Positions 27,592 to 28,063 of a DNA stretch of 50,866 nt are shown here, in pieces (the first letter of the stretch is position 1; each line of letters begins with the position of its first letter). Both the position numbers and the translations under genes were made by a program. Source of the DNA: a virus (taxonomy: Duplodnaviria; Caudoviricetes); IMG/VR virus record IMGVR_UViG_3300021057_000014, positions 1 to 50,866 of that record; one strand, written 5' to 3'. Under the pieces are notes generated by a model. The model had not been told where the DNA came from, searched no databases, and saw nothing but the letters and a program-made list of their open reading frames with translations.

Positions 27592-28063
27592 CTGCCGTTG
27601 CACCACACAACATAGCCTTTGCCACGCGCTGCCCAGCCGAGCAATGCCGTCGTCCCACGAAGCGGAACGATGCCGTTGCCGTACCCGACAGTGCCACGCA
27701 GTACCATTGCCTCGCGTTGCTCTACTTGGCTTTGCCACGGCTACGCTCAACACTGCCTCTGCAAAACATAACAGCACTGGGCCGTCGCTCTGCTGTTCAG
27801 CGCGCCACCCTACAACGCAGGGCCACCGCATCACACTACCGCGCCTCTGCCAGACCTAGCGCAACGCCACAATACCGCTGCCTTGCTCAACGTCACATTA
27901 CCCTCGCGATGCTAAGCGTCACCACCGCGCGGCTTTACATGGCGCAGCCACCGCTTCGCCTTACACGGCGATACCATCGCCCCACCCTGCGGATCATCAC
28001 GTTGCCTTAGCTGCACAGTGCTACGCCTTGCCCGCGCAATGCAACACTCAGCGCCGCGCTACC
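27592..28063 (-). ncRNA. Pentameric NGY-NN array (91 units, 17 blocks plus a terminal unit); putative guide-RNA precursor for the adjacent Cas7-like protein
   Basis: Hand-parsed: 88 of 91 pentamers are N-G-Y-N-N. Every block starts with GGY, and blocks are separated by one extra nucleotide. The array ends in T7. Confidence 0.85.

Follow-up and report, generated by a model that had tools for sequence, protein, structure and literature searches.

How could guides be delimited in an RNA-guided system that has no repeat, tail or ribozyme between them, and what is the minimum guide per Vipr filament? These questions are raised by a tract of pentamers in a complete 50.9-kb virus record with terminase genes, the whole of which was analysed and is referred to here as the window. 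VIPR systems bind DNA under the guidance of RNA and are programmable; they were first described only in 2026, as CRISPR-like systems of phages, composed of Vipr, a minimal RAMP built on an RRM core with a thumb hairpin and a glycine-rich loop, and of vrRNAs made up of GGY/NN pentamers (bioRxiv 10.64898/2026.04.26.720920). According to passages of the same preprint, there are seven VIPR types, with alternative units including YNNNG; in type II, the NN bases pair with DNA and every third target base is skipped; and a vap accessory gene is typical, though not universal (10.64898/2026.04.26.720920). The legend of its fig. S18 describes 'staggered' arrays, in which vrRNAs overlap by 1 nt so that the end of one marks the start of the next (10.64898/2026.04.26.720920). 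The staggered array is an architecture outside the sRNA-seq confirmation, which, in the passages concerned, covers only the ribozyme-type and single-vrRNA architectures (10.64898/2026.04.26.720920).

The tract is almost certainly an array of guide RNAs (vrRNAs) that belongs to a VIPR system encoded by the phage. Taken as a whole, it is probably a staggered VIPR array, whose blocks would most likely each correspond to one short vrRNA or mini-filament.

Layout and grammar of the pentamer tract

The tract lies in a 531-bp gap separating two minus-strand genes and consists, on the minus strand, of consecutive N-G-Y-N-N pentamers, 91 units in 17 blocks according to the sequence and a Viterbi segmentation (Table 1). 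The successive blocks contain 6, 5, 6, 5, 5, 4, 5, 6, 4, 8, 5, 4, 6, 6, 5, 6 and 4 units (31, 26, 31, 26, 26, 21, 26, 31, 21, 41, 26, 21, 31, 31, 26, 31 and 21 nt). The register slips 17 times, each time by +1 and each time by an extra G (N-G/G-Y-N-N, the slash marking the junction). An earlier note on this DNA, made from the sequence, had listed 17 such slips and the same block sizes, and the segmentation of the minus strand reproduces them exactly. Its further counts also hold, with GGY at 18/18 block starts and, in the block-final full pentamer, NGC in 16/17 and a purine-purine (RR) ending in 14/17. As it had stated, no two blocks are identical: there is no duplicate among the 17 blocks of the Viterbi listing, and 15/15 are distinct in a stricter block walk, which covered 15 of the 17 blocks and halted at a lone off-consensus unit.

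Table 1. Positions of the array, its gene and its landmarks in the window
Feature	Position	Strand	Remarks
vipr gene, 209 aa (p209)	28063-28692	minus	stand-alone Cas7-like RAMP with G-x-G-Q-W-R-type G-loop, predicted from ORF, fold and profile
Staggered vrRNA array (probable)	27592-28063	minus	opens on the final base of the vipr stop codon, which supplies the first G of GGY start 1
First G of GGY starts, 1-9	28063, 28032, 28006, 27975, 27949, 27923, 27902, 27876, 27845	minus	
First G of GGY starts, 10-18	27824, 27783, 27757, 27736, 27705, 27674, 27648, 27617, 27596	minus	
Seven-T run	27585-27591	minus	directly past the 18th GGY start; possible 3' end of the array transcript, judged from sequence

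Within the unit, position 2 is G in 88/89 pentamers and position 3 is Y in 87/89 (56 C, 31 T), while positions 1, 4 and 5 are almost unconstrained. In the window, G stands at position 1 in 13/64 non-first units, as against all 18 block starts. In the 15 blocks of the stricter walk, block-final units differ from inner units both in NGC (14/15 vs 24/49, Fisher p=0.002) and in the RR ending (12/15 vs 18/49, p=0.0065). The GC dinucleotide gives the strongest Fourier peak in the window, with a power of 25-27 at 5.18-5.20 nt. This period is accounted for by one extra G per 5.3 five-nt units, and the peak is sharp since the slips are so regularly spaced; the coefficient of variation of block length is 0.21, and 0/20,000 random placements of 16 slips were equally regular. 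A three-block GY pattern has 3 matches in the sequence and 0 in 100 shuffles.

At all 17 junctions, the blocks abut without a tail or ribozyme, and an Rfam search of the array found no ribozyme or other family at E up to 10. Judged by sequence only, adjacent blocks would share a 1-nt overlap with neither tail nor ribozyme between them, which is the staggered layout. A promoter and terminator scan found nothing useful within the array and did not call the seven-T run. RNA-fold z-scores (-2.3 for the minus and -1.0 for the plus strand) are uninformative, and blastn of the region against GenBank phages gave no match. Contigs of four soil DNA runs were compared, one of which may be the source sample and another of which does not reach the array. 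In the remaining two (covering 27223-27925 and 27618-27984), the array is identical where covered; therefore, no block turnover is seen there. Elsewhere in the window, TRF reports tandem repeats with 9/18-nt and 11/22-nt units (35805-35926).

The register grammar is conserved over 41 loci from viral contigs (described below). Among their 802 six-nt steps, the extra base is G in 721 (about 90%), and their 761 blocks have a mean of 5.28 units (103 blocks of 4 units, 209 of 5, 211 of 6, and 106 of 7). The unit before a junction is biased (C 0.64, A-A 0.56/0.56) relative to inner units (0.40 and 0.38/0.33). The unit preceding a slip is enriched for G-C-A-A, and that following it for G-G-C-A.

The adjoining RAMP gene and its linkage to the array

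The product of the 209-aa gene, p209, has no match in Pfam, PHROG, NCBIfam or PDB sequences, and a single-sequence search for its relatives among viral contigs found none. Its AF2 model, built on a 39-sequence alignment, has a pLDDT of 88.3 and a pTM of 0.82, and contains a beta-hairpin at residues 126-150 (the thumb) and a C-terminal G-x-G-Q-W-R-x-x-G-x-G-R loop. The best Foldseek matches in the PDB are type VII CRISPR Cas7 and Csm3 (E 2.5e-9 to 1e-5, TM 0.5-0.6), and the family profile matches the G-loops of Cas7 (6.4e-5) and Csm4 (3.7e-3). The family HMM has no match in Escherichia phage SUSP1, the type II VIPR reference (KT454805.2); the Vipr of this locus (ALH47069.1) was found by profile-profile comparison only, and the second SUSP1 gene had no match. 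In the hhalign alignment (81.6% probability, E 1.1e-5), the G-loop is covered and ALH47069.1 residues 177-179 are D-W-R, in agreement with the published numbering (10.64898/2026.04.26.720927). By its modelled fold and these profile matches, therefore, p209 is taken to be a Vipr, i.e. a minimal Cas7-like RAMP. The proposal of the earlier note that the tract is the guide array of an RNA-guided system gains support from this predicted filament-forming protein (fold, profile and hhalign). Among GenBank phages, relatives of p209 occur in 4 unannotated gut phage records (38-39% identity).

Viral contigs were scanned with a degenerate pattern of three GY blocks; at least 120 stretches matched, many of them more than once, and 80 loci were stored. 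Long arrays of up to 273 units are present in all 80. Although these loci were found by the pattern alone, 67/80 contain p209 homologues, and p209 is the only one among 293 window ORFs with homologues in 67/80 array loci. The homologues directly adjoin the arrays; mostly they lie upstream, sometimes downstream, or there are arrays on both sides. In 41/41 loci with clearly one-stranded arrays, the array strand is the gene strand. Some viral contigs have kilobase-scale arrays, i.e. L098 (1-3700; about 3.5 kb of array, from a 243-kb contig), L148 (3763-9650; one 273-unit chain, with three more arrays surrounding its vipr gene), L109, and L120.

The closest Vipr relative (66% identity) comes from a metagenome contig; its locus is laid out alike but has other neighbours and no block in common with the present array. 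The mobile module is thus the vipr gene with its array, and the 489-aa gene and ParB-methylase of the window appear to be bystanders. No accessory (vap) gene is conserved, the largest cluster of neighbours being found in 11/67 loci. ParB-methylase has 3 matches among the 80 array loci and is not in the closest relative. The upstream 489-aa gene is found neither in the other array loci (80) nor in the closest relative, and a role in VIPR as an accessory gene is thus improbable. This gene (28685-30154, minus strand) overlaps the start of vipr by 8 nt and has no Pfam, NCBIfam or convincing PHROG match; by eye only, a D-x-D-like 'YLDSDM' stretch suggests a glycosyltransferase. Relatives of the TerL gene have no homologue of ParB-methylase, vipr or the 489-aa gene near the terminase, save for one short ParB-methylase match in L088, and the region 26299-30154 upstream of the terminase genes thus looks variable and inserted.

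The G-loop of the family differs from that of SUSP1, in which Asp177 (D177-W178-R179) reads the first G of GGY (10.64898/2026.04.26.720927). Gln190 of p209 aligns with Asp177, and in the A1 alignment the Gln is invariant in 39/39 family members. A second scan, made for strict GGY arrays, was compared with the first pattern set for the type of G-loop. With Asp/Glu G-loops (n=18), 0.80-1.00 of the in-phase units carry G at position 1 and slips are few (median 0.05); with Gln G-loops (n=51), position 1 is G in 0.11-0.54 of in-phase units and slips occur at 0.21 of steps. In 9/60 rows of set A, the regular expression caught a later G-x-G-R-F motif in place of the Gln motif. The slip grammar goes with the Gln-type G-loop; since both sets were ascertained by pattern and cover few clades, this is a clade-level association and not a record of many independent events.

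Blocks as possible guides and alternative explanations

By analogy with SUSP1, each Vipr protomer would occupy one pentamer of the transcript and grip its fixed G-Y (the full GGY in SUSP1), leaving the variable bases exposed; these may then form gapped pairs with the double-stranded DNA of competing elements and so silence them. In this clade, the transcript would be punctuated by register alone, as every 4-8 pentamers an extra G makes a full GGY one base out of phase. Since an in-phase filament would meet a G where Y is needed, it could not continue, and because of this halt each 21-41-nt block would most likely be one short vrRNA or mini-filament. The fold of the protein, the linkage of its gene to the array, and the grammar with its conservation are shown here, whereas we infer that the array is transcribed, that the filament breaks or the RNA is processed at each junction, and how the bases pair. 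Of the decodings put forward in the earlier note, the gapped one that reads NN only is the published type II rule (10.64898/2026.04.26.720920).

Decoded targets were sought in several sets of sequences. A local seed-and-extend search over 2.1 Mb of phage DNA used eight rules: NN was read with the target advancing by 2-5 nt per unit, NNN with an advance of 3-5 nt, and a last rule took positions 1, 4 and 5. The real blocks scored about as their reversed control in this underpowered search. Block 10, searched as one exact motif against viral contigs, had 3 exact but chance-like matches in a test of low power; in these, position 1 equalled the skipped base in 1/7 each, and the flanking blocks matched at chance level. 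The decoded blocks had 0 perfect matches in the phage's own genome, where power was again low, and 6 perfect matches in four related phages as against 2.6 expected in shuffles, likewise an underpowered comparison. The best of the latter is a perfect NNx match of block 1 (6 units) in a gene of G001 (22281-22297, plus strand), for which the excess over shuffles is marginal and the skipped base falls on codon position 1, not on the wobble position; the product of the matched gene is 60% identical to the window protein at 15919-16716. The earlier note had proposed a target search with shuffled controls. Overall, an excess of decoded targets over shuffled or reversed controls did not appear in the 2.1 Mb, the viral contigs, the phage's own genome or the four relatives, all of these searches being underpowered.

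We infer each block to be a separate guide, a reading towards which the evidence leans slightly. The earlier note had also named gain or loss of blocks in related arrays as informative, and this was seen, as arrays whose Vipr genes are 97-100% identical differ in the presence, order and duplication of whole blocks. Single blocks are gained or lost alone, and some blocks move together between related arrays in groups of three to five, as would likewise be expected of guides that comprise several blocks. The idea that blocks are guides stands in so far as the legend of fig. S18, the junction consensus and the whole-block differences favour it. It is weakened by the absence of targets above controls and by the breakpoints of shared segments, which spread from -16 to +24 nt around the junctions (30 right and 30 left ends) without clustering at them. 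In three related loci (L126, L140, and L167), a leader of about 55 nt directly after the vipr stop codon is conserved, as are the last blocks, while the middle is replaced, a polarity reminiscent of CRISPR leaders.

The main alternative, which we regard as unlikely, is a VIPR array in which several blocks or the whole 470-nt transcript are coated as one filament, with guides that span blocks. The extra G, occurring about once per helical turn, would then be an adjustment of register or strain, i.e. one more flipped-out base. This agrees with the block mode of 5-6 units, since one turn of the SUSP1 filament likewise comprises six Vipr protomers in the free and five in the DNA-bound state, and takes up about 25 nt of RNA (10.64898/2026.04.26.720927). 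By the same analogy, however, the block length would fit one-turn mini-filaments just as well as a once-per-turn adjustment. Continuous coating would also suit the low information of single blocks, as under the NN rule a block of 4-8 units has only 8-16 read bases, which is poor specificity for a lone guide, and it would suit the movement of blocks in runs. It is opposed by the legend of fig. S18, which takes the junctions as vrRNA boundaries (10.64898/2026.04.26.720920), by the consensus that junction-flanking units have of their own, and by the gain and loss of single blocks. Moreover, no continuity of targets across junctions was found at offsets of -3 to +4 in the 2.1-Mb search or of -3 to +7 at the block 10 matches, both of which are underpowered.

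Returning to the favoured staggered array with one vrRNA or mini-filament per block, a more specific form of it can be suggested tentatively for the clade with Gln-type G-loops. With Asp replaced by Gln in the G-loop, the inner units may need only G-Y, and an out-of-phase GGY every 4-8 units may both end one filament and seed the next. As SUSP1 filaments have 5-6 protomers per turn, a block would then span roughly one helical turn of Vipr, and a single untailed transcript would be physically split into many one-turn mini-guides of 8-16 read bases, acting together. Guide boundaries would thus be set by register only. If true, this would be a principle of guide punctuation without repeat, ribozyme or tail.

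A signal at the DNA level, such as a packaging site by the terminase genes, in which G-C steps recur with each half-turn of B-DNA (5.2 bp) and serve wrapping or binding, is very improbable. The Fourier period of 5.18-5.20 nt is near half of 10.4-10.5 bp, and the ParB-methylase, small-terminase-like and TerL genes all follow downstream of the tract. However, the unit is strand-specific, being G-Y with 31 G-T on the gene strand, and the period is five plus one extra base per 5.3 units. In addition, 80 ParB-methylase loci and seven loci with TerL relatives (36-72% identity) are without such a tract, and a pattern search of four whole TerL-relative records gave two single one-mismatch matches, which is chance level. 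The array is therefore tied to neither gene; its companion is the RAMP gene. A pentanucleotide microsatellite in decay, or a functionless chance pattern, for which the short period and nothing else speaks, is refuted by the unit consensus (G kept in 88/89 units while three positions are nearly random), by the shuffles (0/100 matched the pattern), and by the same grammar beside one protein family in dozens of unrelated viral contigs.

Comparison with known systems

In TRAP, fixed GAG/UAG triplets with 2-3-nt spacers lie around a protein ring, and the tract resembles its target in having a 5-nt step with occasional 6-nt steps. TRAP-type RNA binding was rejected, as there is no TRAP-like protein, a RAMP takes its place as partner, and G-Y is fixed where TRAP has GAG/UAG. 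Phasing on the DNA half-turn and a TRAP-like ring were the first ideas and were dropped once the RAMP partner was recognised.

The backbone of Class 1 CRISPR complexes (Cas7/Csm3 on crRNA) shares the RAMP fold. In these complexes, one protomer sits on each fixed step of the guide RNA, with bases flipped by the thumb; 5 bases of each 6-nt step are paired, the guides are cut by Cas6 from repeat-spacer arrays, and the genes form cas operons. The present locus differs in its 5-nt step and in having no repeat of at least 20 nt and no other cas gene in the neighbourhood. No cas family was found among the five neighbouring proteins scanned, and TRF gave one weak 26-nt period with 2.3 copies and no long repeat array. 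The interpretation in the earlier note is supported in part and broadly coincides with that of the 2026 preprints. Its likening of the junction to a CRISPR repeat is loose, since the junction, whose grammar is conserved over 41 loci, is one base with a weak flanking consensus and no repeat.

SUSP1 type II VIPR is closer. Its small RAMP likewise contains a thumb and a G-loop, whose W-R aligns with that of p209, and its pentamer arrays, which lie on both sides of two small genes, are on the gene strand, as here. In SUSP1, every unit is GGY, vrRNAs of 9-16 units end in a structured 3' tail that includes a pseudoknot, and the locus carries a vap gene (10.64898/2026.04.26.720920). In contrast, only G-Y is fixed in the present locus, the blocks have 4-8 units with no tail between them, there is no conserved partner gene, and the Asp of the SUSP1 G-loop (D177) is replaced by the invariant Gln of the p209 family.

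The staggered VIPR arrays come nearest, sharing with this locus a stand-alone RAMP gene beside a long pentamer array in a phage, and the 1-nt vrRNA overlap, compared here through the text of the legend, fits the N-G/G-Y junction (10.64898/2026.04.26.720920). The word 'staggered' does not occur in the searched passages of two later VIPR preprints. Likewise, block-length statistics, the identity of the extra G, the junction consensus and the link to the Gln G-loop do not appear in the VIPR preprint passages, of which the supplements may hold more. Together with its relatives, the locus provides a clean set of rules, i.e. an extra G in about 90% of slips, blocks of 4-7 units (about one filament turn), biased junction flanks and a Gln-type G-loop, which make the question of staggered arrays directly testable. 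Overall, this is a real VIPR locus that had not been listed before; its array is staggered, and it is an ordinary new example of a layout that has already been described.
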